DNA of 44,874 nucleotides from an uncultured archaeon (GTDB lineage Archaea > Iainarchaeota > Iainarchaeia > Iainarchaeales > JAAZKV01): positions 9,379 to 54,252 of the forward strand of contig CAZPWC010000004.1 of the NCBI GenBank assembly GCA_964590155.1, in the 5' to 3' direction. The translations under genes were made by a program, and so were the position numbers. The notes under the pieces were generated by a model. The model did no database searches and had not been told where the DNA came from. It saw nothing but the letters and a program-made list of their open reading frames with translations. Every line of letters starts with the position of its first letter. Position 1 is the first letter of the stretch. Shown here piece by piece: positions 9,365-37,931 of this stretch.

Positions 9365-9383
9365 ATTTAGTTGATTATGTTTG

Positions 9384-9431
9384 GTTGTTGGATTTGGTTG
9401 ATTGATTTTTGTTGTTGGATTTGGTTGATTG
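9384..9431. repeat. 21-bp direct repeat x2 (GTTGTTGGATTTGGTTGATTG), period 27 bp, inside a cytosine-free stretch
   Basis: Identical copies at 9384-9404 and 9411-9431. TTGATT motifs recur through 9470. Confidence 0.8.
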
Positions 9432-9495
9432 GGTTTGATTAGTTGATTTAGTTAGTAATTTTGATTATTATTTTAATGCGTGCAAGTTGATTTTT

Positions 9496-10137
9496 ATGGA
9501 AACAAAAGAAAGAGCAAAAAAGGTTTTTCTTGAATTAAAGAAAAATTATCCTCATGTTCCTCTCCTTTTTTTAAGTCACAAAACAGATGCGCAAATGCTT
9601 TGCGCAATTATTCTTTCTGCGCAGAGCACTGATGCGCAAGTGAACAAAGTTACTGAAAGTCTTTTTAAGAAATATAAAATCGTTAATGATTTTGCTTCTG
9701 CCAACTTGCGCTCTTTTCAGAAAGAAGTTTTTTCAACAGGGTTTTACAAGTCCAAAGGAAAAAGAGTTATTGAGTGTTTCAAAAAAATAAAAAATGATTT
9801 TAAAGGAAAAGTTCCATTAGAGATGAGTGATTTAATTTCTTTGCCTGGGGTTGGAAGAAAAACGGCGAACCTTGTTTTAGCAAACAAAGGAATTACTGAA
9901 GGGATAGCTGTTGATACTCACGTTTTTCGCCTGGCTAATAGAATTGGATTTTCTTGTGGGAAAACTCCTGAACAAGTTGAAAAAGATTTAATGGACGTTT
10001 TTGATAGGAGGGTTTGGGCAGAAATTAACGGATTGTTAATAAGTCATGGGAGAGCGGTTTGTGCCGCAAAAAGGCCTTTGTGCGAAAAGTGCTTTTTGAA
10101 CGAGAAAAAACTTTGCCCAAGAAAGGGTCTTGTTTAG
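9496..10137 (+). CDS. nth: endonuclease III (DNA glycosylase/AP lyase)
   Basis: HhH-GPD motif LPGVGRKTANLVL, catalytic region VDTHVFR, and C-terminal 4Fe-4S ligands C-x6-C-x2-C-x8-C (CAAKRPLCEKCFLNEKKLC). Confidence 0.9.
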   Translation: METKERAKKVFLELKKNYPHVPLLFLSHKTDAQMLCAIILSAQSTDAQVNKVTESLFKKYKIVNDFASANLRSFQKEVFSTGFYKSKGKRVIECFKKIKNDFKGKVPLEMSDLISLPGVGRKTANLVLANKGITEGIAVDTHVFRLANRIGFSCGKTPEQVEKDLMDVFDRRVWAEINGLLISHGRAVCAAKRPLCEKCFLNEKKLCPRKGLV

Positions 10138-10202
10138 TTGACTTTTTTTCGCGCGATTTTATTTAAGCAACCTTTTTATTCTTCATTTTCCTCTTATTTT
10201 GC

Positions 10203-11717
10203 ATGTCAGAAGCGTTAGTTTTGCCTTTAACCACTATTGGAATAATTATTATTCTGGCTTTATTTTTCAGCGTAATGGTTAGAAAGATAGGGCAGAATGA
10301 AGTTATTGGTTTTATTCTTGCCGGTTTTTTGCTTGGCCCATTTTTTCTTGGTTTTATAAATCCTGCAGATCCGTTGGTTGTTGGTTTTGCGGAGTTAGGA
10401 TTATTTATTTTATTATTTTACTTAGGGGTAGAACTTTCCTTAAAAGAATTTCTTGGTTCGGGAGCAACTATTTTTGGTTTAGCTATAATTGATATGGCTC
10501 TTACGACAGGGATTGGGGTATTAATTTTATTGGCTTTGGGCAACTCTTTTTTGTTCTCGGTAATTGTAGGGATAATGCTTTTTAGTACTAGTACTGCGAT
10601 TGTAGCAAAATTTATCTTGGACAAAAAGCTTTTGGAAAATGCTGCGGCAAAAGTTTCTTTATCTATCTTGATTTTGCAGGACTTTTTAGGAATTCTTCTT
10701 TTAGTTTTTATAACAACTTTGTCTGCGCCTACAGGGCAATCCCCTGCAGCGTTAGCTATTGCGGCAGTTGTTTTTGCTGTCAGCGCGTTTTATGCAGTTT
10801 ATCATTTATCAAAAATTGTTGAAAATTGGTTGTATACTAATGGCTTTGGGCACACTGAAATGACGCTGTATGCTTTAGGTATTGGTTTAGTTGTTGCAAC
10901 CCTTGCGAGCGTTATTGGTTTGTCGACAGCCATTGGTGCTTATTTTGCTGGTTTTGCTTTGAGTGAAACAAAAGCCAGTAATTCAATTAAAAAAGATGTT
11001 GGCTTTTTGAGAGATTTTTTCCTTGTTTTCTTTTTTGTCGGGTTTGGAACAACTTTGTTTTATGATTTTGCTCTTCACGCGGTTGTTTTGCCTTCAATTG
11101 ATGAAGCAATATTTATGATTCTACTAGCGACTATCTTGGGGGTGGGGGCGATTTTTGCACATTCTCTTGCCTCAAGAGTATTTGGTTCATTATTTGGTTT
11201 GAGTGCTGATGATGCTTCTCTTTCAGCAATTCTTCTATCGCCTTTAGGGGAATTTGTTGTAATTATTGCTACTGTTGCTGTTGCTTCCGCTGTTTTGTCT
11301 CCTGCTGAAGCAAAATTTATTAGTCCCCTAGCTTTTTTGTTGATAATAATTACACTTATTCTTTTCCAGCCGATGTACTCCGCAAAAGAATTGCACAAAA
11401 AATTATTTGCTTTAATTCCTAGAATTCCTGTGCACGAAAAAGAAACTTCTTTAAAACCGCATAATGATTATACAATTGAGCATATAAAAGAAATCGGGAT
11501 AAGTGTTTTTGTAATTATTTGTTTTGCTTGGGTAACTATTTTGCTTTACAATGATCTTCCTCGATTTGGTGTTCCTATTCTTTACAGTAGGCAAATAACT
11601 TCCGCAATAATCTTCATTTTCTTTGCCTCATTCCCCTTCTATCGCGCTTCAAGAGCTTTTTGGAGAATATACAAACATATTAGAATCACAAAAAAACCTA
11701 TTCACTCATTAAAGTAA
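10203..11717 (+). CDS. cation:proton antiporter (CPA2/Kef-type) with an extra C-terminal membrane extension
   Basis: About 12 or more TM segments. IGQNEVIGFILAGFLLGP and LFILLFYLGVELS are typical of the Na_H_Exchanger family. Confidence 0.75.
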   Translation: MSEALVLPLTTIGIIIILALFFSVMVRKIGQNEVIGFILAGFLLGPFFLGFINPADPLVVGFAELGLFILLFYLGVELSLKEFLGSGATIFGLAIIDMALTTGIGVLILLALGNSFLFSVIVGIMLFSTSTAIVAKFILDKKLLENAAAKVSLSILILQDFLGILLLVFITTLSAPTGQSPAALAIAAVVFAVSAFYAVYHLSKIVENWLYTNGFGHTEMTLYALGIGLVVATLASVIGLSTAIGAYFAGFALSETKASNSIKKDVGFLRDFFLVFFFVGFGTTLFYDFALHAVVLPSIDEAIFMILLATILGVGAIFAHSLASRVFGSLFGLSADDASLSAILLSPLGEFVVIIATVAVASAVLSPAEAKFISPLAFLLIIITLILFQPMYSAKELHKKLFALIPRIPVHEKETSLKPHNDYTIEHIKEIGISVFVIICFAWVTILLYNDLPRFGVPILYSRQITSAIIFIFFASFPFYRASRAFWRIYKHIRITKKPIHSLK

Positions 11718-11826
11718 TGAATCTTTTGGGAAGCCTAAGTTTTGAGAAAAGATTAAGCTCTGGGAAAAAATTGATTTTTTCTTCACAAATGAAGTATTAA
11801 AAAAGGATTGATGGAAAACTTCTTTT

Positions 11827-12342
11827 ATGATTTCGAGAAAAACGGTTCTTGGCGATATTATTTCCTCTAATCCGGAGATTATTCCTTTGCTTGCACAAGC
11901 TGGGCTTCATTGTATTGGTTGCCATGTGTCAGCATATGAATCTATCGAAGATGGCTGCAAGACTCACGGGATGACTGATAAGCAAATTGATGATCTTATT
12001 GTGGAAGCAAATAAACGCGCAAAGGAATATGACGGGATGCCAAAAATTGCTTTGACAAAAAGTGCTGTTTTGGAACTAAAAAAAAGAGTTACCTCTTCAA
12101 AAGCAAAGTATGCTAAGATTTTCCAGGTGTATGGGGGGGACTTTGATTTTGATGCGGTTAATGAAAAAGAACCAACCGATGTTGAGATTGATGCGGGTGT
12201 AAAATTGCTTCTTGAAAAGAGAATTGAAAGGATTTTGCGCGGTATTGAAATTGATTTTAACTCAAAATTGAAAGATTTTACTGCAAAGAAAGTTGGAGTA
12301 AAAAAAGAAAATAAAGCAAAGAAAAAAGCGAGTAAAAAATAA
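11827..12342 (+). CDS. DUF1858 (hybrid-cluster-protein-associated redox disulfide) domain fused to a Cys-less HesB/IscA-like domain and a Lys-rich tail
   Basis: N-terminal half: VLGDIISSNPEIIPLLAQAGLHCIGCHVSAYESIEDGCKTHG. C-terminal half: IALTKSAVLELKK...GVKLLLEKRIERILRGIEIDF, which resembles the IscA fold without its cysteines. Confidence 0.6.
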   Translation: MISRKTVLGDIISSNPEIIPLLAQAGLHCIGCHVSAYESIEDGCKTHGMTDKQIDDLIVEANKRAKEYDGMPKIALTKSAVLELKKRVTSSKAKYAKIFQVYGGDFDFDAVNEKEPTDVEIDAGVKLLLEKRIERILRGIEIDFNSKLKDFTAKKVGVKKENKAKKKASKK

Positions 12343-12420
12343 AAAACGAAAGGAAAATGACAAGCAAAGCGATAAAACCAAAATAGGTGCTGGAAAAATA
12401 CAAAAAAAGTAACTAAAATT

Positions 12421-12999
12421 TTAAATGGCTTTTTTTGCCCCAATCCATCCGATTATTATTCCTGCTATGAGTGATAGCGAAACTGTTATTACAAAAAATT
12501 CTCGGGTTATTTCTTGCGCTGCTGAATAACTTGTTTGAGTAATGTTAGCTTCTTTTGTTACGGTGGCAAGCATGGGTTGATCTTCAATATTGCTGCTGCC
12601 TAGTAGTGTATCTTGATTTGATTGTGCAGCACCGATGTTACTTGTTGAAGAAAGTACAACGAATAATAAGCCGCTAAAGAGTATCGCTCCCATGCAAAGA
12701 GTTATTAGGACACGCACTTGCTCCATTAAGTTTGGAACAATAATAGTTTTTCCTTTTCCTGTTAACTCATAATATTTCCATTTATGCCCATCGTCAATAA
12801 GTTTTATCAAACTGGCATCCATTAGTACGGAGCAGTGTTCTTTTATTGTTGAACTCTCTTTGCTCAACTTTTTGCTTAGCTCAGTTAGCGTCATTCTCCT
12901 TTGGCTTAGTGATTTAAGTATGTTAACTCTACTGTCTGCCGATAGTGCCTTAAAACTTTTATCATCAAGGATTATTTCTTTTTCTTGCATAAGTATCAC
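12421..12999 (-). CDS. ArsR-type winged-helix regulator with two TM segments (membrane-anchored)
   Basis: LSADSRVNILKSLSQRRMTLTELSKKLSKESSTIKEHCSVLMDASLI is followed by two hydrophobic helices (LITLCMGAILFSGLLFVVL; FFVITVSLSLIAGIIIGWI). Confidence 0.7.
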   Translation of the reverse strand: MILMQEKEIILDDKSFKALSADSRVNILKSLSQRRMTLTELSKKLSKESSTIKEHCSVLMDASLIKLIDDGHKWKYYELTGKGKTIIVPNLMEQVRVLITLCMGAILFSGLLFVVLSSTSNIGAAQSNQDTLLGSSNIEDQPMLATVTKEANITQTSYSAAQEITREFFVITVSLSLIAGIIIGWIGAKKAI

Positions 13000-13039: not shown

Positions 13040-14074
13040 TTAATTGTTTGGATTTTGTTCGGTCTTTTGTTTTGTTGGAGTAAATCCTTCGATTGAGTAA
13101 AGTATGTAATAAAAAAGTCCTGCAAAATTTTTCACCAAAACTTCGCTGATAAACGTTACTAAGAAAAAGGAAGTCATTATGTAAAGCAACCAAGCGTATT
13201 TCTTGAAGAAACCAATTGCGGGTATTTGCTCTATTATTGTTTCTCCTAAGTTAGTTTGAGGGTTGAGACTTATCTGGTCATTTAATTGTTTCTTATAAGC
13301 ATCTGTTTTGAATTGGGTTTCTATTGCTTCCATTGTTGCGACAAACGAAAGAGAATCAACATCTGTTTTTTTCTCAAGAGTTAGGTACGCGGGGGTACTT
13401 TTTATTCCTTGTACTGTTGCTTGCTGTCCGCTAACAAGCATTCCAACAAATTGGTCTTGGATTTGCTTAGCAAGTGTGTCTTGATTACCTATTGATACTT
13501 CCAAAATATCAGTGGCAACATTTTTCTCTAAAGTGTCTCTTGTCGAGTAACTTACCATTGCAAGGTACAATATAAAAGCTATTCCAAAAATAATCAAAAA
13601 TCTTCCCGCGCCCGAAGCCCCTGACCTAAATTTTTTCATATACTTTACTTCTTCTTCTCTTTTTGAAAGGTAACTAACTGACAGGGGAACTCCTATCAAA
13701 CTTATAATTATGACAAAAAGGTATTCCGCAAGGTTGAACAATAGTAACGCGATTATTGCGCCTACAAGAAAGGCTCCGCCGGGAACTATAAAATTCAGTG
13801 GTTTAATAAGTTCTTTTCCGCAAACAAGCAAAAGAGCTATTGTTATTGCTCCTGATAAAATAAAGTAAACAAAATTTAGGGACATCATGGCTTGCATTAG
13901 TGGAATAAAATTTATCGTCAAAAACATTTGGGTAGTTATTTTTGTCGCTGAAAAAAGCATCCCTGTTATTATACAAAAAATAACTATCAATAAAGCAAGC
14001 GCCCCTATTTTCAAGTCAGAGTTCATTAGGATAAAACTAGTTTTTTTCTTTATTTTAAGCTTTCGTTTAGGCAT
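13040..14074 (-). CDS. hypothetical polytopic membrane protein
   Basis: 344-aa ORF with several TM helices and a central soluble loop. It ends 40 nt upstream of the ArsR-TM gene on the same strand. Confidence 0.6.
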   Translation of the reverse strand: MPKRKLKIKKKTSFILMNSDLKIGALALLIVIFCIITGMLFSATKITTQMFLTINFIPLMQAMMSLNFVYFILSGAITIALLLVCGKELIKPLNFIVPGGAFLVGAIIALLLFNLAEYLFVIIISLIGVPLSVSYLSKREEEVKYMKKFRSGASGAGRFLIIFGIAFILYLAMVSYSTRDTLEKNVATDILEVSIGNQDTLAKQIQDQFVGMLVSGQQATVQGIKSTPAYLTLEKKTDVDSLSFVATMEAIETQFKTDAYKKQLNDQISLNPQTNLGETIIEQIPAIGFFKKYAWLLYIMTSFFLVTFISEVLVKNFAGLFYYILYSIEGFTPTKQKTEQNPNN

Positions 14075-14109: not shown

Positions 14110-17100
14110 ATGGAAAGTGCGCAGGAACAATCAATTGATTTTTCTTCTATTGAAAAAAAATGGCAAAAAGCTTGGGAAAAAGAAAATATTTTTGCTGTTA
14201 AAGAGTCATTAAAGAAAGAAAAATACTATGTTCTTGAAATGTACCCTTATCCAAGTGCTAGCTTTTTGCACATGGGTCATGTTAGAAACTTTACAATAGG
14301 GGACGCTTTTGCCAGATTTAAGCGAATGAATGGATTTAATGTTCTTTACCCGATGGGTTATGATTCTTTTGGGCTCCCTGCAGAAACTGCTTCTAAAAAA
14401 GAAGGGATTCATCCAAGGGTTTACACTGAGTCTGCAATAAAGAAAATCATGGAGTACCAAAAAGCAATGGGGAATAGTTATGACTGGGACAGAGTTATTG
14501 CAAGCCACGAGCCTGAATATTACAGGTGGAACCAGTTCTTTTTTATAAAACTTTTTGAGAGAGGACTTGCTGTTAGAAAAAAGGCTCCAGTAAATTGGTG
14601 TGAAACTTGCCAATCAGTTCTTGCTAATGAAGAAGCGGAAGGCGGAAAATGTTGGAGATGCAATAGTGAAGTAATTCAAAAAGATATGGAACAATGGTTT
14701 TTGAAAATTACCAAATACGCTGATAGATTGCTTGTCGACCTTGACAAATTAGATTGGCCTGAAAGAATAAAAGTAATGCAAAGAAATTGGATAGGGCGAA
14801 GCGAGGGAACCGAAATTAATTTTGAGATTAATGGAGCTAAGTGGCCGATTTTTACCACTCGTCCTGACACAATTTTTGGAGTAACTTTTGTTGTAGTGAG
14901 TGCTGAGCACCCGAAATTGTTTGAACTTGTTACAAAAGAACAAAAGGTTGCGGTTGAAGAATTTTTGAAGAAACTAAAATCTGCGGGGGATAAAGCAACT
15001 GAACTTTACGAGAAGGAAGGCGTATTTACTGGCGCTTACGCAATTAACCCAATGACTAAAGAAAAAATTCCTGTTTATGCAGGAAATTTTGTTGTTGCGA
15101 GTTACGGTTCAGGGATGGTAATGGCTGTTCCTGCTCATGATCAGAGAGATTATGAGTTTGCGGTGAAGTACAAAATCCCAATAAAGCAAGTTATTGTGCC
15201 AACGTTTATTACTGACACTGGCGTTGATGCAATAAGACCAAACCTGCCAGTGGTTGAAAGGAAAGCAGTGTTTGGAATTGTGAAACACTGGGTAGAAGAT
15301 AAGTACTATTGTCTGGATTGGACTAAATTTAATTGGAAAACTTTTGTTATTGGGGGGGTAGAAAATAATGAAACTGCTGAGGAAGCGGTTATTCGTGAAG
15401 TGAAAGAAGAAACTGGCTACTTGGATATTAAGTCAGTAAAAAAAGAAGGGTTTGAAGTTTTTTCAAAGTTTTTTGCTACTCACAAGGGGGTAAATAGAGC
15501 AGCTTGGCAAACTGCTTTCATTGTAGAACTTGCTTCTGATAAACATGTTGAACCAGAAGCAAAGCATGTAAAGAACCACAAAGGGCAATGGGTTGCAAAA
15601 AAAGATATGGCAAAATTTTTGAATATTAAATGCCAACAATACTTTTGGAGTAATTACTTAAAAGGCGGGGAAGCGTTTACAGAAGAAGGGCTTTTGATTA
15701 ATTCGGATCCTTTTAACGGAATGGAAAGCGAGAAAGCTATTGAAGAAATTACTAACACACTTGCAAAGAAAGGATTGGGCAAAAAAACTGTTAATTACAA
15801 AATTCGTGATTGGCTTGTTTCTCGTCAAAGATATTGGGGGACACCAATTCCTGCAGTTCATTGTGAAGCGTGCGGAGTAGTAATGGTTTCTGAAAAAGAT
15901 TTGCCTGTTTTGCTTCCTGAAAAAGTTGATTTTAAGGTTTCTGGAAATCCGCTAAATTCCAATAAAGAATTTGTCAACACAAAGTGTCCTAAGTGCGGGG
16001 GTAATGCGAAGAGAGAAACTGACACAATGGGCGGATTTGTTGATTCAAGTTGGTACTTCTTAAGGTATTGTGATAATAAAAATAAAACAAAACCATTTGA
16101 TCCAAAAAAAGCAAAGTACTGGATGCCTGTTGATCAATATATTGGCGGAGCGGAGCATGCGGTAATGCACTTAATGTATGCGCGCTTCTTTGTCAAAGCG
16201 TTAAAGGACATGAAATTTGTTGATTTTGATGAACCTTTTCAAAAACTTTTCAATCAAGGAATAGTTTACAAAGACGGGGCAAAAATGTCTAAGTCAAAAG
16301 GTAATGTTGTTTTCCAAACGGATATTTCAAACAAGTACGGGATTGATACGGCAAGATTGTTTTTGATGTTTGTTTCTTCTCCTGACAAACAAATGGAGTG
16401 GAATGATGAGGGTGTTGAAGGGGCATTTAGAATAATTAATCGTTTTTTTAGAATTGCGGAAAAAGTTAAAGATGTTGCTCCTGATAAAAAAACCCAGAGT
16501 AAATTAAATATTACAATTAGGGATGTTACAAACAATGTTGAGTCATTTGATTATCCTAAAGCAATTATTGCAATCTCAAATTTTGTGGATTATCTTTTGA
16601 CTTTGGATGTTGTTCCAAAATCTGCTTTTGAGGAAACATTAAAACTTATTTCCGTGTTTTGCCCGCACATTGCTGAAGAATTGTGGCATAGAATTGGGAA
16701 TAAATCATTTGTTTCAGTTGCTAAATGGCCAAAACTTAATGAAAAATTAATTGACGAGAATTTTGAACGCATTGAGCAACTTGTTCAATCTTTAAGATTA
16801 GATATTTTGAAGATAAAAGAACTTGCAAAGATAGAGAAAGTTTCTAAAGTGAAAATATTTGTTGCTCCTGAGTGGAAGTGGAAAGTTATTGATTTAGTGA
16901 AGAAGGCTTGTGATAACAAACCTGATTTTGGTGCGGCAATGAAAGCTGTTATGGCTGATGTTTCGTTGAGAAAATACGGTGGCGAAGTTTCGGGTGTTGT
17001 AAAAACAGCGGTGAACAAATTAGTTGACATTTCTTTGCTTGAGAGGTTTGACGAAGTTGCGGTTTTAAAAGAAGTTAAATCTTCTCTTGAAAAAGAATTT

Positions 17101-17190
17101 GGTTCAATAGAAATTATTCCTGCCCAGGAATCTAAAGAACAGAAAGCAAAAAATGCTTTTCCTGGAAAACCCGCTCTTTTGGTTGAATAA
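14110..17190 (+). CDS. leuS: leucyl-tRNA synthetase, bacterial-type core, with a Nudix-domain insertion in the CP1 editing domain
   Basis: HMGH (SFLHMGHVRNFTIGD), GYDSFGLPAE, TTRPDTIFG, MAVPAHDQRDYEF, RDWLVSRQRYWG and KMSKS (GAKMSKSKGN). There is an extra segment of about 160 aa carrying the Nudix box GGVENNETAEEAVIREVKEETGY at nt 15352-15420. Confidence 0.95.
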   Translation: MESAQEQSIDFSSIEKKWQKAWEKENIFAVKESLKKEKYYVLEMYPYPSASFLHMGHVRNFTIGDAFARFKRMNGFNVLYPMGYDSFGLPAETASKKEGIHPRVYTESAIKKIMEYQKAMGNSYDWDRVIASHEPEYYRWNQFFFIKLFERGLAVRKKAPVNWCETCQSVLANEEAEGGKCWRCNSEVIQKDMEQWFLKITKYADRLLVDLDKLDWPERIKVMQRNWIGRSEGTEINFEINGAKWPIFTTRPDTIFGVTFVVVSAEHPKLFELVTKEQKVAVEEFLKKLKSAGDKATELYEKEGVFTGAYAINPMTKEKIPVYAGNFVVASYGSGMVMAVPAHDQRDYEFAVKYKIPIKQVIVPTFITDTGVDAIRPNLPVVERKAVFGIVKHWVEDKYYCLDWTKFNWKTFVIGGVENNETAEEAVIREVKEETGYLDIKSVKKEGFEVFSKFFATHKGVNRAAWQTAFIVELASDKHVEPEAKHVKNHKGQWVAKKDMAKFLNIKCQQYFWSNYLKGGEAFTEEGLLINSDPFNGMESEKAIEEITNTLAKKGLGKKTVNYKIRDWLVSRQRYWGTPIPAVHCEACGVVMVSEKDLPVLLPEKVDFKVSGNPLNSNKEFVNTKCPKCGGNAKRETDTMGGFVDSSWYFLRYCDNKNKTKPFDPKKAKYWMPVDQYIGGAEHAVMHLMYARFFVKALKDMKFVDFDEPFQKLFNQGIVYKDGAKMSKSKGNVVFQTDISNKYGIDTARLFLMFVSSPDKQMEWNDEGVEGAFRIINRFFRIAEKVKDVAPDKKTQSKLNITIRDVTNNVESFDYPKAIIAISNFVDYLLTLDVVPKSAFEETLKLISVFCPHIAEELWHRIGNKSFVSVAKWPKLNEKLIDENFERIEQLVQSLRLDILKIKELAKIEKVSKVKIFVAPEWKWKVIDLVKKACDNKPDFGAAMKAVMADVSLRKYGGEVSGVVKTAVNKLVDISLLERFDEVAVLKEVKSSLEKEFGSIEIIPAQESKEQKAKNAFPGKPALLVE

Positions 17191-17259: not shown

Positions 17260-18825
17260 TTAGCTCTTTCTAACAGTTATTTCTATTGCATCGCTTTTTT
17301 CTTTTATTAAATCAGCAGGATTTAGGGGATCATTGTATTCCCAACTTATAAAGCAAACAAATCGAGTTTCGTTAGTTTTTCCTGGGTTAACTTCTGCTAT
17401 TATTTTCTGTGAGTCTCCTGGCTTTATTGAATCTAGGCTTGGGGTTTCAATATTTACCCAATCACATTCAGTGTCAGGGCTTGTTGGGTCTATCATTATT
17501 TTTTTTATCGATTTTACTTCTTCAGTTCCAATATTTTTTAATGAACCTATTTCTGTTGAACTAATTTTAGTGCATAGGTCAGTATCCTTATCGCAATTTA
17601 GTGTTAGATTTTTCTTACTAAAAGTTAGTCCTACAGTTCTTTCTTTTGTTACTTTCAGATATATTGCAAAGTTCTGATCCGCTTCCATGCTTAGTGAACT
17701 TATTGTTAATATTCCGCTGAATTCAGTGTCTGCTTTTGTTTCAATGGTTGGTTGCAAATTTAATGGGATTGTTTCTTTTGATGCTGGATTTATTACATTG
17801 ATAGTGTATGTACTTTTTTCTCCAAGCGATTTTGAAAACTCAAACCAACTTACTTTATCCGCGTCTTCGTCATTAAGCGGGCTTATAGTTAAAGTAACAT
17901 TTTCTAACGGGACTTTTTTGTTTTTGTTTTCGATTGTTATTGTTAAAGCAATTCTTTTTCCTGCTTCAAGAGTTGTTTTTTCTATTTTGCTTGACCTTAT
18001 GTCTCCACTAAAAATAGTATCTTTAGTTGCTACGTAAGGCATTAGTATTATTTTGAAAGCATCCTTTATTGTAGTGTCTTTTATTGATATTGTTGGGTTT
18101 AATGTTTTTTGTTCAAGAACAGGGCTTTTTTGTTTTACACTAAACATTATGCTTGTTGCGCCTCCTGCTGAAACACTAAATTTATCAGGGGTAAGCGTTA
18201 TGTCAAGTCCTGTCGCGTCTTTGATAATTAGTGGTTCGTCTTGAAGAATTTCTCCGCTAGTGTTTGTTATTACTATTATTCCGTTAAGTTCTTGTTTTGG
18301 AAATAGTTTTTCATAATCAAATTGTACATCTAGTTCGGCTGTTAACTTTTTCTCCATTTTTATTGGTAGGTCGCTTATTCTTTCTCCGCCTTCTTCGTTA
18401 GGGATTTGTAAACTTAGTGTTTCGGTTTTATAATTTTCCGCAATTACCCTGACTGTGTATGTTCCTGATTGTAGTGCTACAGTGTGCGAGCTTCCATTTT
18501 GTGAGTATACTGGCTTGTTGTCGCTTGAAATGATTGTTACTTTTGCAGTGCCAATAGAGGCCGTATCAATTCCGCTTACTGTAATATTCATTGTTTGGTT
18601 TTGCCCAAGCCACCAAACTATTCCACCAATTATTGCTAGAACTATTATCCCGATTACTACTAAAGGGATTATTTTTTTTGCAGTATTTTTTCCTGTATCA
18701 GCAGCTACTCCTGCGTAATAAGCGGCGCTAGAAGCAGCATTTCCTGCCATGTCAGCCATAGTGGGCTCTTGGGACTCAGGATTAGATCCTCCAGGATAAT
18801 AATTTTCGTCTTTTTCGAACATCAA
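17260..18825 (-). CDS. membrane-anchored cell-surface protein with PEGA/CARDB-like beta-sandwich repeats
   Basis: Short cytoplasmic N-terminus and one TM helix (IIPLVVIGIIVLAIIGGIVWWL). These are followed by Thr/Ser/Ile-rich beta-type repeats (e.g. HTVALQSGTYTVRVIAENYKTETLSLQI). Confidence 0.6.
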   Translation of the reverse strand: MMFEKDENYYPGGSNPESQEPTMADMAGNAASSAAYYAGVAADTGKNTAKKIIPLVVIGIIVLAIIGGIVWWLGQNQTMNITVSGIDTASIGTAKVTIISSDNKPVYSQNGSSHTVALQSGTYTVRVIAENYKTETLSLQIPNEEGGERISDLPIKMEKKLTAELDVQFDYEKLFPKQELNGIIVITNTSGEILQDEPLIIKDATGLDITLTPDKFSVSAGGATSIMFSVKQKSPVLEQKTLNPTISIKDTTIKDAFKIILMPYVATKDTIFSGDIRSSKIEKTTLEAGKRIALTITIENKNKKVPLENVTLTISPLNDEDADKVSWFEFSKSLGEKSTYTINVINPASKETIPLNLQPTIETKADTEFSGILTISSLSMEADQNFAIYLKVTKERTVGLTFSKKNLTLNCDKDTDLCTKISSTEIGSLKNIGTEEVKSIKKIMIDPTSPDTECDWVNIETPSLDSIKPGDSQKIIAEVNPGKTNETRFVCFISWEYNDPLNPADLIKEKSDAIEITVRKS

Positions 18826-22045: not shown

Positions 22046-22115
22046 TTGAAAATAGTTTTTTCATTGATTTTTTTTGGTTTGTTTTGATTGGTTTTATTTT
22101 TTTGAGTTGATTGTT

Positions 22116-23525
22116 GTGAAAAAAGAAGAAACTGTGAAGTTTTTTGTTGAGCAGGCAAGAAATAATTTTTCGCTTGTCGAAGAAAATTTGCATAAAATTA
22201 TTGAAGAAGTTAAAGAGACACAAAAAAAAGAGCTAAATTATTTTGAAACCTTTGATGAAGAGTTTGTTTTAAAACAACTTGAAGAGTTAAAAGAAAAATC
22301 AAAAAGCAAAGATTTTGTGAAAGGAAAATTGTTTGGTGTTCCTGTTTCTGTTAAAGATGCTATTTGTGTTAAAGGGCTTGAAAGTAAAGCTGGTTCAAAG
22401 ATACTCGAAGGGTATGTTCCTTTGTTTGATGCTACTGTGATTGAGAGTGTTAAGCGCGAAGGAGCAATAATTTTAGGGAAAACAACGCAGGATGAATTTG
22501 GTTTTGGGACATTTAGCACTAATACTGAAAAAATCCCGCTAAACCCTTTTGATAATTCGCGTTCTTGCGGTGGCTCAAGCGGTGGCGGTTCTGGTTTCGC
22601 AGCGTATACAAAAAATTATCACTTAAGTATTGGAGAAAGTACTGGCGGAAGTATCGCTTGTCCTGCAAGTTTTTGCGGAGTTAATGGTTTTACTCCTACT
22701 TATGGTTTGGTTTCCAGATATGGTTTGATTGATTATGCAAATAGTTTGGACAAAATTGGTTCAATTGCAAGAAATTTTGAGGACTCTGCTTTGTTGCTTG
22801 AAGTTATTTCAGGGAATGATGTGAAAGATTCAACTAACTTGGGGCACAAATTTTCTGTTGGTGAAGAGCCAATGAAAAGAATTGGAGTCATAAAAGAACT
22901 AATTGATTCTTCAGATCCTGAAGTAAAAAAAATCATTCAAGACAAAATTGTGGAATTAAAAAAGTTTTTTGTTGTTGAAGAGGTTTCTTTGCCCCTGAAT
23001 TTTAAATATGCATTGTCAGTTTATTATATTATTGCGACTTGCGAGGCTTCAACAAATCTTGCAAAATTGTGCGGTTTGCGTTATGGTGTGCAAGGTAGTG
23101 TTGAAGGGAAACACTTTGATGATTACTTTTCAGAAATAAGAAGTGAAGAGTTTTCTGCAGAATCAAAAAGAAGAATAATTTTGGGGACATTTGCCAGAAT
23201 GTCTGGTTATCGTGATGCGTATTATCTCAAAGCGATGCGCGTTCGTACAAAATTAATTAATGAGTTTAATTCTGCTTTCAAGAAATTTGATATTCTAATT
23301 AGCCCAACAATGCCTGTTGTTTCTCCAAGGTTTGATGAAATAGAAAAGCTCACTCCGCTCCAAAATTATTCGATGGATTTGTGCACTATTCCTGTTAATT
23401 TAGCCGGGTTGCCTCATGTTAATATTAATGCGGGTTTTTCAAGAGGGCTTCCTGTTGGCTTAATGGCAATTGCTCCTCACTTGAAAGAACAAAGACTTTA
23501 CTCATTTGCAAAGGTGGTTGAATGA
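22116..23525 (+). CDS. gatA: aspartyl/glutamyl-tRNA amidotransferase subunit A
   Basis: Amidase signature GGSSGGGSGFAA and VSVKDAICVKG. The start is uncertain: GTG 22116, TTG 22107, or the track TTG 22074. Confidence 0.9.
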   Translation: MKKEETVKFFVEQARNNFSLVEENLHKIIEEVKETQKKELNYFETFDEEFVLKQLEELKEKSKSKDFVKGKLFGVPVSVKDAICVKGLESKAGSKILEGYVPLFDATVIESVKREGAIILGKTTQDEFGFGTFSTNTEKIPLNPFDNSRSCGGSSGGGSGFAAYTKNYHLSIGESTGGSIACPASFCGVNGFTPTYGLVSRYGLIDYANSLDKIGSIARNFEDSALLLEVISGNDVKDSTNLGHKFSVGEEPMKRIGVIKELIDSSDPEVKKIIQDKIVELKKFFVVEEVSLPLNFKYALSVYYIIATCEASTNLAKLCGLRYGVQGSVEGKHFDDYFSEIRSEEFSAESKRRIILGTFARMSGYRDAYYLKAMRVRTKLINEFNSAFKKFDILISPTMPVVSPRFDEIEKLTPLQNYSMDLCTIPVNLAGLPHVNINAGFSRGLPVGLMAIAPHLKEQRLYSFAKVVE

Positions 23526-24937
23526 GCGAAACAAATCTTGATAAAGTAATGATTGGATTAGAAATTCACGCTTATCTTGATACTAAAAGTAAATTGTTTT
23601 GTTCTTGTTCGACTAGTGATGAGACTGCTGAGCCAAATTCTTTGTGTTGTAATATTTGTCTGGGTCATCCTGGGAGTAAACCTGTTCTTAACGAAAAAGC
23701 GGTTGAGCTTGCGGTGAAAATTGGTTTGGCTCTTAATTGTACTATTAACAAAGATTTTTTCTTTTCAAGAAAAACTTATTTTTATCCAGATATGAGCATG
23801 AATTATCAAATTACTCAATATGAAGTGCCTGTTGCAGAAAAAGGTTTTGTGATTCTTTCAAGTGGAAAAAAGGTTCGGATAAAAAGAGCGCACATTGAGT
23901 GGGATCCTGCTGCTTTAGTTCATCCTAATGGGATGGGCAAAAGTCAATATGTTTTAATTGATTATAATCGTTCAGGCTTTCCGCTAGTAGAAATTGTTAC
24001 TCAACCTGATTTAGAAAGTCCGCGGGAAGCAAGAGAATTTCTCAACTTGTTGGAAAATATTTTAGGTTACCTAAATGTGTTAAAACCAAACACAACAATG
24101 AAATCTGATTGTAATATTTCTATTCATGGAGGGAACAGAGCTGAAATAAAAAATGTTTCTGGTTTTGCGGCTGCAGAGAAAGCTCTAACTTATGAACTTG
24201 CTAGGCAAAAAAAAGAGGTTGATTCTGGAAAAATAATTGAACAGCACACTAGGGCATTTAATGCTGATACTGGGGTAACAACCATGTTAAGAAAAAAAGA
24301 AACAGAAGACGATTATGGTTACATTTTTGACCCAGACCTTGTCAAAGTAAGTTTAGAAGAACAATACATTTCAAAGATAAAAAAAGAATTGCCTGAATTG
24401 CCCGAGGCTAAGTCAAAGAGATACCAAGTAGAGTACAAGCTACCTGAATTTGATGCGGTTGTTTTGTGCGGAAATTTTGGTTTAACAAAACTATTTGAAG
24501 AAATGGTAAAGCAGTCAGCCGACTCTATTATTTCAGCAAGGTTACTTACACGAGAATTGCTTGCCGTATTAAATCATGATTCTTTGCAACTTGGCGACGT
24601 TAAAGTTTCTGCCGGAGCTTTAGTTGAGCTGGTTGATTTGATAAAAATAGGAAAAGTTTCTGACAAAAACGCAAAGCAATCAATAATTAATTATGTAAGC
24701 GGGGACAAAACAATGCCGGTTGGGTATTTGAAAAAAAATGACTTGTTAATTTCTTCAGATATTAATCTTGAAGAAATTGTTTCAAAAGTTGTTGCTGAAA
24801 ATCAGAAGGCTGTTGCCGATTACAAATCAGGGAATGAGAAGTCATTAAATTTCTTGGCAGGCCTTGTGATGCGACAGACAAAGGGTACTGCTGCTCCACA
24901 AAAAGTTCAGGAAATGCTTAGGCAAAAACTTTCGTAA
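23522..24937 (+). CDS. gatB: aspartyl/glutamyl-tRNA amidotransferase subunit B
   Basis: IGLEIHAYLDTKSKLFC, NRSGFPLVEIVT, and a C-terminal YqeY-like tail. ATGA overlap with gatA. Confidence 0.95.
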   Translation: MSETNLDKVMIGLEIHAYLDTKSKLFCSCSTSDETAEPNSLCCNICLGHPGSKPVLNEKAVELAVKIGLALNCTINKDFFFSRKTYFYPDMSMNYQITQYEVPVAEKGFVILSSGKKVRIKRAHIEWDPAALVHPNGMGKSQYVLIDYNRSGFPLVEIVTQPDLESPREAREFLNLLENILGYLNVLKPNTTMKSDCNISIHGGNRAEIKNVSGFAAAEKALTYELARQKKEVDSGKIIEQHTRAFNADTGVTTMLRKKETEDDYGYIFDPDLVKVSLEEQYISKIKKELPELPEAKSKRYQVEYKLPEFDAVVLCGNFGLTKLFEEMVKQSADSIISARLLTRELLAVLNHDSLQLGDVKVSAGALVELVDLIKIGKVSDKNAKQSIINYVSGDKTMPVGYLKKNDLLISSDINLEEIVSKVVAENQKAVADYKSGNEKSLNFLAGLVMRQTKGTAAPQKVQEMLRQKLS

Positions 24938-28973: not shown

Positions 28974-29008
28974 AAAAATCACTTTTTTTGTTTAATTTTA
29001 ATTAAAAG

Positions 29009-29082
29009 TGGGCAGCGGGAGATTTGAACTCCCGACCGCTCGATTATCAGTCGAGTGCTCCAACCGACTAAGCTAGCCGCCC
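29009..29082 (-). tRNA. tRNA-Ile (anticodon GAU)
   Basis: Manual cloverleaf: GGGCGGC/TA/GCTT-AGTCGGTTG-GAGC/A/CTCGA-CTGATAA-TCGAG/CGGTC/GGGAG-TTCAAAT-CTCCC/GCTGCCC/A. 74 nt, no encoded CCA. A TTTAAA box lies about 30 nt upstream. Confidence 0.9.
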
Positions 29083-29156
29083 ATTACTAAAAAGTTGCTG
29101 ACGGAAAGCTTTAAATTGCTACTTCCAACCAATATTTTAGTAGAGCGATTGATTAT

Positions 29157-29229
29157 AGCCCCTTCGTCCAGTGGCCAAGGATGCAGGCCTTTGAAGCCTG
29201 AGACCCCAGTTCGAATCTGGGAGGGGCTA
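29157..29229 (+). tRNA. tRNA-Gln (anticodon UUG)
   Basis: Manual cloverleaf: AGCCCCT/TC/GTCC-AGTGGCCAA-GGAT/G/CAGGC-CTTTGAA-GCCTG/AGAC/CCCAG-TTCGAAT-CTGGG/AGGGGCT/A. The A1-U72 pair is typical of archaeal tRNA-Gln. Confidence 0.9.
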
Positions 29230-29268
29230 ATTTTATTATAAAGTTTAATTCATTTTTTGTGATTTTTT

Positions 29269-31258: not shown

Positions 31259-31726
31259 ATGTTCTGTATGGGTTTTATTGAGGGTGCGCAAAAAGAAGCT
31301 CTTTTTGGAATAAGGAAAAATCACGGAGGTCCTTTTGGTGCTGTTATTACAAAAGGAAATAAAGTAATTGCTTCCGCCCATAATGAGGTTTTGAAAACAA
31401 ATGATCCGACAATGCATGCGGAAATTAATGCGATAAGAAAAGCAACAAAAAAATTAAAAAGATTTGATTTAAGCGACTGTGTGTTGTACACTTCTTGCGA
31501 GCCCTGCCCTATGTGCTTTTCGGCAATTCATTGGGCAAGAATAAAAAAGGTTTATTATTACGCAGAACAAAGTGATGCAAAAAAAGCTGGTTTTGATGAC
31601 AAGTTATTTTATGATGTTCTCAAAGGAAAAAGAAAACCTGAATTTAAGTTAGTGAAAGTAAAAATGAGCCGTCCGTTGAAAGAGTTTGACGAATGGGCTA
31701 AAAAGAGCGATAAAAAGATTTACTAA
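31259..31726 (+). CDS. guaD: CDA-fold nucleoside/nucleobase deaminase, closest in pattern to GuaD-type guanine deaminase
   Basis: GGPFGAVITKGNKVIA...NDPTMHAEINAIRKA...LYTSCEPCPMCFSAIHWARIKKVYYYAE...AGFDD parallels Bacillus GuaD almost motif for motif. A TadA-like role is not excluded. Confidence 0.65.
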   Translation: MFCMGFIEGAQKEALFGIRKNHGGPFGAVITKGNKVIASAHNEVLKTNDPTMHAEINAIRKATKKLKRFDLSDCVLYTSCEPCPMCFSAIHWARIKKVYYYAEQSDAKKAGFDDKLFYDVLKGKRKPEFKLVKVKMSRPLKEFDEWAKKSDKKIY

Positions 31727-31821
31727 TTTAGTTAAAATTACTTGTTTTTTCCTTTTGTGGGTAAGCTTTTATTGCTTTTTAGCTTTGAGGGTTATAGAGC
31801 TTACTTTAGTTTGGTGTTTTG

Positions 31822-32286
31822 ATGAATGACGAGATTGTTGGAAAAGTTCGTCACATTATAGGGATAATTGTTTTTGATGGGGAAAGATTCTTGTTGCTTC
31901 GTCGTTGCTTGAATTGGCACGGCTGGGAATATGCTAAAGGGGGTATTGAGGAAAATGAAGGCTTTGAAGAAGCTATAAAGAGAGAACTTTTTGAAGAAAC
32001 TGGTCTTAAGAAGTACGAAGTTATTGGGAAAGTTAATGAAGTAGAGTTTTTTGATAATGTCAGAAAAGGAAAAGGGCATATGTTTAATTATTTAGTCAGG
32101 GTTTCAAGCAATTCAGTGGTTAAGTTAAATAATGAGCACGTTCTTGATTCAAAGGAAGTAAGAGAACATGATGATTTTAAATGGTGTTTCCCGCAAGAAG
32201 CACTAAAAAAATTGACTCATGCTGATACAAAAAAATCTTTGAGAGAAGCAATCAAGATGCTTGGGTTAAGTTTGAAAGAAAATTGA
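31822..32286 (+). CDS. Nudix hydrolase
   Basis: Canonical Nudix box GGIEENEGFEEAIKRELFEETGL. The ATG at 31822 lies one codon after the track TTG. Confidence 0.85.
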   Translation: MNDEIVGKVRHIIGIIVFDGERFLLLRRCLNWHGWEYAKGGIEENEGFEEAIKRELFEETGLKKYEVIGKVNEVEFFDNVRKGKGHMFNYLVRVSSNSVVKLNNEHVLDSKEVREHDDFKWCFPQEALKKLTHADTKKSLREAIKMLGLSLKEN

Positions 32287-36053: not shown

Positions 36054-37931
36054 TTATTTCAAATATTTTTGTATTTCTTTTTTCAATAGGTCGCTTAATA
36101 TTTTTCCGTCTATTCCTTTTAGTGCGGGTTCTTTTGCCAAATCGCCCATCAAGGGTCCTATTGCTCCGGGTCCGCGGATTTTTATTAGTGCTTCGTTATT
36201 TGAAACAACTTTTTTAATAATTGGCTCTAATTTTGAAACATCAATAACTTTTTGCATGGAAAGAATTTCTTCAAGAGTTTTTTCTTTTGTTATTTCAACA
36301 AGGGCTTGTTTTATGTTTGACTTGCTAAGTTTTCCGCTTGCTTCAGCGAGAATTATTTCTTCTAAATCACTTTCTTTAATTTTTTCAATAGAAATATTTT
36401 CGCGTTTCATTTCTGTAAGTGTTTGAAGTAGTGTTGTTGCAGCAACTGTTGGACTAGCTCCTTTTTCAACTAACAATTCAAAAAATCGGGCATAGTTGCT
36501 TAATTTCATTTCTTCAATATGATTAACGCTTAAACCAATTTTTTTATAATGTTCTTCTCTCTCCGCAATGCTTTTTGGTAAACCTTTTTTTATTTCCTGC
36601 AAATATTTTTCATTGACTTTTTTGAAAGGGATGTCAGTTTCGGGGTACATTCTTGCTTCTCCTGATATTGGTCGTTGATATTCTGAACTTGCATCTTCTA
36701 GCGCTCCGCGCGTTTCAGAAGGGACTTTTTCTAAAGCGATAAGTATTCTTTCTTTTATCGCTTCAAATGCTTTCTTTGCTTTCTCTTTTTCAGAAACAAT
36801 TAAAACAAAATTATCTTCTTCTCCGCACCCTAATAGAAACATGGTGTCTTTTACTTCTTTCTCAGTTATTCCATAATTTGGAAGCTCGTCGCGGTGTAAT
36901 AATCCGCTTACTCCTGTTGCTTTCGCGTATGCCGATAATTCACTTCCAAATCTTTTTGTTCCAACTTTTTCGCCCAAAAATCCTTTCATTTGTGATAACT
37001 TCATTCCGAAAACTTTTTTGTCTTTCATGAACTTTGCTTGTGTTTCTGCAAAGGCTTTTGTTGCTTCTTTTGGTTCGCAAGTAATTATTTTTTCTAAGTT
37101 TTCGTGGGTTTTGAATTTTTTTGCGAGTTTTTCTCTTAGTGAAAGTAAATCAATTTGTCTTTCTATTTCATTTTCAATTAATGGCTTTATCATTTCAAGT
37201 TCTTGGCATCCTTTTATTTCGCATCTTGTCCCTTCTTTTATTGAGATGTTTACATCCTGTCTTATTGTTCCTTTTCCTCTTTTTGTTTTGCCTGTTAATC
37301 TCATTATTTCTCCTATTTTTGCGGCTGTAAGAACGGCTTCTGTTGGGGTTGTAATATCAGGATCTGTTGCTAGTTCTATTAGAGGTATTCCTAGTCTATC
37401 AAGGTTATAATACACTTTTCCGTTTTCTTTTTTTATTGGTCTGCAAGCATCTTCTTCAAGAATTATTGTTTGTACTCCTATTCTTTTTTCTTTACCCTCT
37501 GTTTGTATAAAAAATTCTCCCCCTATTGAGGTGAGGCAAGTTCTTTGAAAGCCTGAAGTGTTGCTTCCGTCAATCACCGTTTTTCGCATTGGAACAATTG
37601 TGTTAACAATATTACTTTTACATAGTAATGCAACTTCAAGAATTGTTTTGAGCGCTTCTTCGTCAATTGGTTGGGGGGGTTCTTCATCTAATTCAATTAA
37701 AGAAATTGTTTCTTTGTTTCCTGAATAAAAAAATGTTTCGTTTCTTTTAAATGCGTCAAGCGCTGTTTTGTCATATTCTCCAAGTTCGCTAGCGACAGGC
37801 CTTAGTTTTCTTTCTATAGTAAAATCAACTGCGTCGCTTAAAGTGCTTGGGGTTCTGATAAATAACTTTTTTGTGTCAAGTTGTTGGTGCACTTCAAGAC
37901 CGCACTTCAGTCCGATTGTTTGGTAATCCAT
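36054..37931 (-). CDS. gatE: glutamyl-tRNA(Gln) amidotransferase subunit E (archaeal)
   Basis: MDYQTIGLKCGLEVHQQLDTKKLF, a GatB-like core with the AspRS-like insertion, and 625 aa in length. Confidence 0.9.
   Translation of the reverse strand: MDYQTIGLKCGLEVHQQLDTKKLFIRTPSTLSDAVDFTIERKLRPVASELGEYDKTALDAFKRNETFFYSGNKETISLIELDEEPPQPIDEEALKTILEVALLCKSNIVNTIVPMRKTVIDGSNTSGFQRTCLTSIGGEFFIQTEGKEKRIGVQTIILEEDACRPIKKENGKVYYNLDRLGIPLIELATDPDITTPTEAVLTAAKIGEIMRLTGKTKRGKGTIRQDVNISIKEGTRCEIKGCQELEMIKPLIENEIERQIDLLSLREKLAKKFKTHENLEKIITCEPKEATKAFAETQAKFMKDKKVFGMKLSQMKGFLGEKVGTKRFGSELSAYAKATGVSGLLHRDELPNYGITEKEVKDTMFLLGCGEEDNFVLIVSEKEKAKKAFEAIKERILIALEKVPSETRGALEDASSEYQRPISGEARMYPETDIPFKKVNEKYLQEIKKGLPKSIAEREEHYKKIGLSVNHIEEMKLSNYARFFELLVEKGASPTVAATTLLQTLTEMKRENISIEKIKESDLEEIILAEASGKLSKSNIKQALVEITKEKTLEEILSMQKVIDVSKLEPIIKKVVSNNEALIKIRGPGAIGPLMGDLAKEPALKGIDGKILSDLLKKEIQKYLK

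Follow-up and report, generated by a model that had tools for sequence, protein, structure and literature searches.

A Nudix hydrolase domain nested in the CP1 editing domain of a leucyl-tRNA synthetase from an uncultured archaeon

The editing domains of aminoacyl-tRNA synthetases (aaRSs) are a textbook case of quality control, and the CP1 editing domain of leucyl-tRNA synthetase (LeuRS) is a validated drug target. Among described LeuRS enzymes, that of Mycoplasma mobile lacks the whole of CP1. It is also without the leucine-specific domain and has a GKDG peptide before KMSKS (3ZIU; PMC3643597). In the Natrialba magadii enzymes NmLeuRS1 and NmLeuRS2, the N-terminal body is of bacterial type and the C-terminal tRNA-binding domain of archaeal type (Fang et al. 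2014, PMC4005665). Here we describe a LeuRS gene (leuS) on a 44,874-nucleotide stretch of DNA from an uncultured archaeon of the Iainarchaeota (GenBank assembly GCA_964590155.1, contig CAZPWC010000004.1, forward-strand positions 9,379 to 54,252; the whole of this stretch is hereafter the window, and its first letter is position 1). Inside CP1, this LeuRS carries an entire Nudix hydrolase domain. A literature search turned up no account of any LeuRS with a Nudix domain on it or in it, in keeping with the initial annotation of the window, a model's reading of the letters that knew of no described LeuRS of such architecture. The architecture is undescribed yet recurrent, in sequences that are public and bear automatic PF00293 annotation.

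The open reading frame (ORF) and the features of the encoded protein on which the argument depends are the following, in window coordinates with amino acid (aa) positions.

14110..17190 (+): leuS ORF, 1026 aa, one uninterrupted frame with a bacterial-type LeuRS body and an archaeal-type C-terminal domain
14269..14280 (+): HMGH, the HIGH-type synthetic-site signature, aa 54-57
14782..15798 (+): CP1 editing domain, aa ~225-563, split by the insert, with PF13603 in two stretches
14854..14871 (+): TTRPDT, the Thr-rich editing motif, aa 249-254
15136..15150 (+): HDQRD editing motif, aa 343-347, containing the conserved Asp347, 16 residues ahead of the insert
15196..15672 (+): nested Nudix module, aa 363-521 (159 residues), a whole ~160-aa Nudix protein in place of a 12-17-residue CP1 loop
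15331..15609 (+): Pfam NUDIX (PF00293) match, aa 408-500, 41.4 bits in the whole protein
15352..15420 (+): Nudix box GGVENNETAEEAVIREVKEETGY, aa 415-437, the loop-helix-loop carrying the metal-binding glutamates
15481..15498 (+): HK-x-x-NR family motif (HKGVNR), aa 458-463, recognized by its conservation in the family alignment
16282..16296 (+): KMSKS loop, aa 725-729

The initial annotation had described this gene as encoding a single polypeptide with an insertion of about 163 residues, and both points hold. The frame is open throughout, all the motifs quoted are found, and 162 residues separate KYKIPIKQVI (ending at aa 362) from EEGLLINSDPFNG (starting at aa 525). The same interval spans 17 residues in the closest insert-less homologues and 13 in Thermus thermophilus LeuRS (residues 363-375). 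The PF13603 editing-domain model scores 199 bits and is interrupted at model position 143 of 185, with aa 225-365 matching model positions 1-143 and the remainder following the insert, which places the insertion inside CP1. Within the insert, PF00293 reaches 42.6 bits (E = 7e-11) when the insert is searched alone and 41.4 bits in the whole protein, compared with a gathering score of 21.1. The sequence GGVENNETAEEAVIREVKEETGY, located exactly where the initial annotation had put it, matches the complete Nudix box pattern G-x5-E-x7-R-E-U-x-E-E-x-G-U; its final U is Tyr, which is the norm in the family to which the insert belongs (163 of 182 copies).

Structure prediction points the same way. An AlphaFold2 model of the whole protein, built on a 60-sequence family alignment, has a mean predicted local distance difference test (pLDDT) score of 88.7 and a predicted template modelling score (pTM) of 0.77. 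The 10-residue blocks across 361-520, including both junctions, score 90-96, which suggests a firmly packed domain rather than a floppy one, and the Nudix box sits on a helix at residues 423-435. Modelled alone on a 44-sequence alignment, the insert reaches a pLDDT of 93 and a pTM of 0.86. A Foldseek search of the PDB with this insert-only model gave 442 matches at E<=0.001; all 50 of the matches listed are Nudix hydrolases, and the top match, 2AZW, superposes at a template modelling score (TM) of 0.75 on the alpha/beta/alpha Nudix fold. On the evidence of these models, the insert is a complete, autonomously folding Nudix domain.

In the DNA, the insert stands where a syntenic insert-less gene has the loop codons KEEIISLEKMKK, between VI-x-P and AFTE flanks, and this comparison of the junction revealed no flanking repeats, intein motifs or nuclease. 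We considered and rejected an intein or other mobile in-frame element, since the loop replacement is clean and without repeats and the whole insert is explained by the Nudix fold. An anti-phage defense module was likewise rejected; the sole PADLOC match covers 30 residues over the box, at 19 bits, to PDC-S07.

The synthetic and editing sites of the host enzyme are intact as judged by residue conservation. H54, G56 and H57 of the HMGH signature are unchanged across 60 homologues, and S727, K728 and S729 of the KMSKS loop are invariant in homologues. In the editing site, T249, T250, R251, D253 and T254 of the Thr-rich motif, together with H343, D344, R346 and D347 of HDQRD, are invariant in insert-bearing and insert-less homologues. 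The sequence RDWLVSRQRYWG is found at aa 566-577. The whole protein scores 906.1 bits with TIGR00396 (leuS_bact), for which the curated cut-off is 548.4. Its best relative in the PDB is T. thermophilus LeuRS (764 bits), with aa 13-362 aligning to T. thermophilus residues 8-362 and aa 522-720 to residues 376-578. With Foldseek, the whole-protein model has 1h3n and 2bte as its top matches and superposes on the T. thermophilus, Neisseria gonorrhoeae and Escherichia coli enzymes.

The C-terminal part of the protein has other affinities. Residues 669-1026 align to 575-946 of 946 in PRK12300 and to 568-938 of 938 in TIGR00395, that is, to the very end of the archaeal models, and residues 667-1026 align to residues 597-967 of the Pyrococcus horikoshii enzyme (1wz2). 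By these alignments, the window LeuRS is a chimera of a bacterial-type body and an archaeal-type C-terminal domain. The leucine-specific domain is missing: query positions 720 and 724 correspond to T. thermophilus 578 and 636, with T. thermophilus residues 579-635 absent, and the chain runs YKDGAKMSKS at this point.

The nested arrangement is not peculiar to the window. The insert is present in 38 of its 120 best LeuRS homologues, as a Nudix domain of 152-163 residues in exactly the same loop and with the same junctions, and the strict Nudix box is intact in all 38, though the positions between the motif residues vary. These homologues come from independent contigs of up to 985 kb in NCBI, JGI, ENA and Logan assemblies. 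The source organisms that are named are "archaeon", "Nanoarchaeota archaeon" and "Candidatus Woesearchaeota archaeon", and taxonomic breadth rests here on source names, gene content and gene context. At NCBI, the insert-bearing proteins are named only "class I tRNA ligase family protein", with PF00293 precomputed on many entries. The initial annotation had allowed that the segment might turn out to be a common, already annotated LeuRS insertion; common and machine-annotated it is, through PF00293, and a curated or described LeuRS insertion it is not. A scan of reference genomes with the single insert found one true locus only (L005).

An exhaustive HMMER search with the insert identified 350 representative proteins at E<=1e-3, 183 of them at E<=1e-10. 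A word-index homology search with the insert alone had returned no match, a failure of sensitivity given these 350 relatives. A full-length domain is present in 135 of the representatives. LeuRS enzymes, whole or as fragments, account for 91 of these, and no host protein other than LeuRS was found in this set. The other 44 consist of free-standing proteins (about 155-205 aa), proteins with Nudix domains in tandem, longer proteins with a single Nudix, and LeuRS fragments overlooked in the mapping onto the LeuRS core. Free-standing members can be aligned over the full length of the insert, so the insert corresponds to an entire gene. Nested copies were mapped to the following positions of the LeuRS core, and seven proteins hold two or three of them.

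Core ~362 (the site used in the window): 119 nested copies
Core ~213 (the N-terminal CP1 hinge): 13 nested copies
Core ~245 (the hairpin before the Thr-rich motif): 2 nested copies
Core ~422-461: 3 nested copies

The relatives share the signatures EETGY, HK-x-x-NR and two conserved Trp residues, and the insert belongs to a distinct Nudix subfamily. Over 182 family copies, the metal-binding glutamates are almost without exception retained, with the E of RE present in 180 and the two residues of the EE pair in 176 and 181. Given these conserved glutamates, the Nudix box is probably catalytically competent. In HK-x-x-NR, the Lys, Asn and Arg are at least 90% conserved in nested and standalone members alike, and we infer that they are candidate substrate-binding residues. 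In one subclade (P0121, P0122, P0147, P0149, P0155 and others), a change of E7 to Q co-varies with a change of R15 to A, M, Q, K or T. The three metal-binding glutamates are retained in this subclade, which could be a variant catalytic or regulatory form; the copy in the window is canonical.

A hidden Markov model (HMM) of this LeuRS-linked family gives true members 170-215 bits. Two candidate members were rejected with it: a Nudix gene upstream of leuS in locus L009 (NUD145) has zero match, and another after the IleRS gene in L001 (NUD141) reaches only 45 bits. The "MutT" names that JGI gives to standalone members are generic. The window also contains a separate 155-aa free-standing Nudix gene (31819-32286, +; PF00293 70 bits) beside a cytidine/dCMP deaminase gene (31259-31726, +), so the genome encodes at least two Nudix enzymes. 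This second gene, at only 41 bits with the LeuRS-linked HMM, is of another family.

The Nudix domain is a facultative part of LeuRS. The closest relative of the window enzyme, P0002, has no insert, although the two share 83% identity overall and 88-95% in CP1, and its locus is syntenic, seven upstream genes and the downstream one being shared. At the position of the window's Nudix domain, it has the plain loop KEEIISLEKMKK. Since the editing and synthetic residues are invariant either way, the Nudix domain neither replaces LeuRS chemistry nor is required for it. On the tree of LeuRS cores, the presence of the domain is patchy, and the identities of insert and core are poorly correlated (r = 0.27); the trees are neighbor-joining trees of mosaic genes.

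That leuS is a mosaic is seen in a sliding comparison with its homologues. The catalytic body of the window enzyme (aa 41-200 and 561-760) is nearest to the insert-less P0003 and P0006 (0.78-1.00), whereas for CP1 (aa 221-340) the best agreement is with the Nudix-bearing P0004/5/7/8 group (0.65-0.95), and P0006 is distant (0.28-0.61). The CP1 of P0002 matches that of the window at 0.88-0.95, yet is without the insert. In window coordinates, the stretch 14770-15195 (aa 221-360) differs in ancestry from 14230-14710 and 15790-16390 (aa 41-200 and 561-760). Such mosaic ancestry within leuS indicates that whole CP1 cassettes have been exchanged between DPANN lineages. The simplest reading of these comparisons is that the CP1 and Nudix cassette was acquired through recombination and that P0002 lost the Nudix domain recently. 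In the syntenic insert-less locus (L013), leuS is followed by a 160-aa ORF (11263-11745, +) without Pfam or Nudix-family similarity. The window has no such ORF, and its leuS directly precedes a 521-aa minus-strand gene at 17260-18825. We considered whether this ORF could be a split-off Nudix gene and rejected the idea, as the family HMM gives no match to it and finds no family copy in L013, L014 or L015.

We also examined eight loci of free-standing members of the subfamily. One (P0189) ends 2 bp ahead of a leuS gene that itself holds a nested Nudix, on a contig that is bacterial as judged by its sigma-70, YceG and MnmA-type genes. Another (P0149) is found 2.4 kb upstream of a leuS without insert, and the gene order there is AI-2E transporter, MetRS, TatD, Nudix, further genes and LeuRS. 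A locus distantly syntenic with this one (30-44% identity) has the order AI-2E, MetRS, TatD, LeuRS; the free Nudix gene is absent there, and the LeuRS holds a Nudix and a Ham1 domain inside. Two of the eight standalone genes are thus in an apparent operon with leuS. The chance of two loci in eight lying so near leuS is ~0.0015, a rough and indicative figure that assumes about 800 genes per genome. Of the remaining loci, one standalone gene (P0270) lies between ArgRS and IleRS-like genes and another (P0147) just downstream of ProRS. Neighbors of the standalone members also include genes for dUTPase, NTPase_I-T, a YfbR-like HD protein, thymidylate kinase, nucleoside deoxyribosyltransferase, a MutM-like glycosylase and TatD, and many of these neighbors are nucleotide house-cleaning, salvage or DNA-repair genes. 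Nesting in LeuRS only, taken together with the two apparent operons with leuS, supports some functional tie between this Nudix subfamily and LeuRS.

Other small enzymes are nested in related synthetases (P0134, P0135, P0206, P0016, P0063, P0083 and P0093). An alpha/beta Ser_hydrolase domain (PF06821) is nested in related LeuRSs at core ~245 or ~430, and in P0135 it lies outside CP1. P0206 holds a HAD phosphatase at aa 654-808, P0134 a Ham1/ITPase domain at aa 984-1167, outside CP1, and P0093 an aminoglycoside-nucleotidyltransferase-like domain (PF10706) in the very loop that the Nudix domain uses. A free-standing PF06821 gene occurs near one standalone Nudix. From these domain matches, the window LeuRS is one case of a lineage-wide decoration with nested small hydrolases, comprising one to three Nudix domains, Ham1/ITPase, HAD, alpha/beta serine hydrolase and nucleotidyltransferase-like domains. 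In one locus (L001-L004, about 9386-12890, +), a 1167-aa IleRS-like class I synthetase has a nested His_Phos_1 domain (PF00300), so domain nesting is not confined to LeuRS. This gene is flanked by Nudix genes, in a nucleotide-salvage neighborhood on a bacterial-looking contig that encodes RecO.

What the nested domain does can be narrowed less far than what it is. NudI/YfaO NTPases, the Aquifex and Chlamydia Ap4A hydrolases, RppH and NudB all match its fold to a similar degree, and no one class of specificity is favored. No curated NCBIfam Nudix subfamily reaches its cut-off for the insert. The best matches, RppH (PRK00714, 25.5 bits against 118) and YtkD (TIGR02705, 22.6 against 154.4), are weak, and the MutT 8-oxo-dGTPase models TIGR00586 (20.3 against 97.9) and PRK10776 (20.4 against 148) also fall below their thresholds.

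We favor, with a confidence slightly above even, the reading that the insert is catalytically active, a Mg-dependent pyrophosphohydrolase acting on a small nucleoside-polyphosphate, and that, tethered to LeuRS, it serves as an accessory house-cleaning enzyme. The module has its origin in a leuS-linked family of free-standing genes (~160 aa), and is nested in a permissive surface loop of CP1 in the functional LeuRS of a DPANN-type archaeon. There it may hydrolyze a small nucleoside-polyphosphate, with ApnA, non-canonical or surplus (d)NTPs and NDP-X as candidates. It would do so as an accessory "house-cleaning" enzyme carried on LeuRS, and not as a step of the catalytic or proofreading cycle; the tether could yield co-expression, a 1:1 stoichiometry and proximity to an active site that consumes adenine nucleotides. 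We infer the house-cleaning flavor from the nucleotide-metabolism neighbors of the standalone members and from the Ham1 and HAD domains in related LeuRSs.

Several points weigh against this accessory house-cleaning role. Four of the eight standalone loci have no aaRS neighbor, and the nearest solved relatives, at no more than 42 bits when the family profile is compared with the PDB, span several specificities. In addition, an accessory role alone would leave the hosting by LeuRS only, at several sites and in several copies, unexplained, a pattern that argues for tighter coupling.

One such coupling was proposed in the initial annotation, in which the Nudix domain acts in cis on by-products of leucine activation, either Ap4A/Ap3A formed from Leu-AMP and ATP or ADP, or misactivated adenylates, as a built-in clean-up, proofreading or signaling activity. 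We consider this unlikely, though not negligible. It is established that aaRSs produce Ap4A and that Nudix enzymes hydrolyze it, and the exclusive association with LeuRS, through fusions at several sites and neighbors in operons, would suit such a role, as would the other standalone members beside ArgRS and IleRS-like, MetRS and ProRS genes. Ap4A hydrolases are also among the best structural and profile matches, with Aquifex 3i7u (ranks 4-5), CT771 4mpo and Caenorhabditis elegans 1kt9 among the Foldseek matches listed and 3i7u and 1f3y in the profile search. These matches, however, are no better than those to NudI/YfaO NTPases, RppH and NudB, with which they are interleaved at similar scores. 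A Tyr about 16-18 residues after the Nudix box is a rule for Ap4A hydrolases, and a lead only; the window has Phe-Phe at +17/+18 (SKFFATH), where the family consensus is F-Y/F. An aminoacyl-adenylate, being an acyl-phosphate, is no typical Nudix substrate, nor is LeuRS known as one of the strongest producers of Ap4A. Moreover, the insert is dispensable in the 83%-identical sister enzyme, the editing residues are equally conserved with and without it, and the Ham1, HAD and alpha/beta-hydrolase domains nested in relatives would be out of place in a role specific to Ap4A. What stands of the functional proposal in the initial annotation is a Nudix enzyme with an intact box in all 38 same-site homologues, nested in LeuRS only and with standalone relatives linked to leuS; its coupling to Ap4A or proofreading is disfavored by the dispensability of the insert, the unchanged editing residues and the lack of any favored specificity class.

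Alternatively, the Nudix domain may be one tool of an unrecognized "hydrolase toolbox" of LeuRS in tiny-genome archaea and bacteria, alongside the alpha/beta-esterase, HAD, Ham1 and nucleotidyltransferase-like domains, with CP1 and the LeuRS body presenting a LeuRS-bound ligand to the extra catalytic sites. Candidates for the ligand would be tRNA(Leu) ends, dinucleoside polyphosphates made by LeuRS, or nucleotide-mimic LeuRS inhibitors. We regard this broader idea as doubtful; if true, it would reveal a new level at which proofreading, repair or detoxification is coupled to aminoacylation.

A more specific proposal is that the Nudix domain acts on RNA held by LeuRS, removing a 5'-triphosphate, a 5'-diphosphate or a cap (NAD or Np4A) from tRNA(Leu) or another RNA, with CP1 serving as a docking platform for hydrolases that repair tRNA ends. 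The weak best matches in NCBIfam are indeed to RNA pyrophosphohydrolases, RppH and YtkD, and the matches by fold and by profile include RppH structures and AvrM14 decapping effectors. Most insertion sites lie in or at the hinges of CP1, which handles the acceptor end of the tRNA, and relatives nest esterase, phosphatase and nucleotidyltransferase-like domains at CP1. RppH models, however, reach only 25 bits where their cut-offs are 116-259, and an RNA-binding extension is not evident in the insert. The Ham1 domain of P0134 and the Ser_hydrolase of P0135 lie outside CP1, and the standalone members are found mostly among genes of small-molecule nucleotide metabolism. On balance, action on RNA ends seems quite improbable.

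The insert could also be non-enzymatic. It might then be an appendage with a structural or regulatory purpose, or else a quasi-selfish insertion, neutrally tolerated, that recombination carries into permissive loops. Its patchy presence on the LeuRS tree, the poor correlation between insert and core identity (r = 0.27), the swapping of CP1 cassettes between lineages, the apparently recent loss in P0002 and the unrelated nucleotidyltransferase-like domain in the same loop of P0093 are all compatible with this. However, the near-invariance of the catalytic glutamates over 182 diverged copies, with a mean insert identity of ~49%, implies purifying selection on catalysis, the family persists as free-standing genes as well, and the junction has none of the flanking repeats, intein motifs or nuclease of a mobile element. 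We therefore give this explanation little credence. Finally, an assembly or gene-calling artefact, with a Nudix gene wrongly joined into leuS, is effectively excluded: the window does come from a metagenome-type assembly, but the insert recurs in frame and with the same junctions in the independent assemblies of the 38 homologues, the GC content across the leuS region is unremarkable, and both junctions are modeled at a pLDDT of at least 90.

The tethered house-cleaning enzyme that we favor would be of interest even if it did no more than that, as its distribution reveals where LeuRS naturally tolerates insertions (core ~213, ~245, ~362, ~430 and ~630), which is of use in protein engineering, and shows whole CP1 cassettes recombining between lineages. 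Were the Nudix domain to act on LeuRS-derived nucleotides or tRNA, translation fidelity and nucleotide metabolism would prove to be coupled in a new way in organisms with minimal genomes. In either case, the finding flags a distinct and uncharacterized Nudix subfamily with a genomic association that can be tested.

Elsewhere in the window, genes for an archaeal/eukaryal-type ATP-dependent DNA ligase and a GatE-like protein fit an archaeal source. The latter (36054-37931, -; 625 aa) has its GatB_N domain split by an insertion, and a GatA-amidase/GatB pair is encoded at 22074-23525 (+) and 23522-24937 (+); together, these genes suggest that both archaeal routes of tRNA-dependent transamidation are present. 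The only RNA genes detected are a divergent pair for tRNA-Ile(GAU) (29008-29082, -) and tRNA-Gln(UUG) (29156-29230, +), with no tRNA-Leu and no RNase P RNA within the window. The genes that flank leuS, at 13040-14074 (-; 344 aa) and 17260-18825 (-; 521 aa), have no Pfam match and are both kept in the P0002 locus; from their sequences, both look like genes for membrane or surface proteins.

Among known systems, the bacterial-type LeuRS enzymes of T. thermophilus (1H3N/2BYT), E. coli (4AQ7/4ARC) and N. gonorrhoeae (6Q89) share with the window enzyme the catalytic body, the point at which CP1 is inserted, and the Thr-rich and HDQRD motifs. Up to residue 362, the numbering runs one-to-one with that of T. 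thermophilus LeuRS, in which Asp347 has the identical number. Compared with that enzyme, the window LeuRS has a 159-residue Nudix domain in place of the 13-residue loop 363-375, no leucine-specific domain and an archaeal-type C-terminal domain. The haloarchaeal LeuRSs (PMC4005665) are chimeras of the same type, and differ in lineage (Halobacteria as opposed to a DPANN-type archaeon) and in that nested enzymatic domains are not described there. The M. mobile LeuRS shares the absence of the leucine-specific domain and has GKDG where the window has YKDGA ahead of KMSKS, whereas the window enzyme has a full CP1 with an extra domain in it.

Similar to the insert, free-standing small Nudix enzymes (2AZW of Enterococcus faecalis, NudI/YfaO, Ap4A hydrolases, RppH and NudB) have the alpha/beta/alpha fold with a complete box at a similar size, and superpose at a TM of 0.6-0.75. 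The insert resembles them mostly in the box (no more than 42 bits, 14-22% identity), and differs in its own signatures and in being nested in another enzyme. The joining of a translation enzyme to a second enzymatic module is likewise seen in NCBIfam NF040702 (isoleucine--tRNA ligase, N-acetyltransferase domain-containing) and in the trans-editing and appended domains of eukaryotic aaRSs. In contrast to those aaRSs with extra catalytic domains, the module of the window LeuRS is a Nudix domain, for which the literature searched gave no earlier report on any aaRS, and it is nested in the editing domain rather than placed at a terminus.

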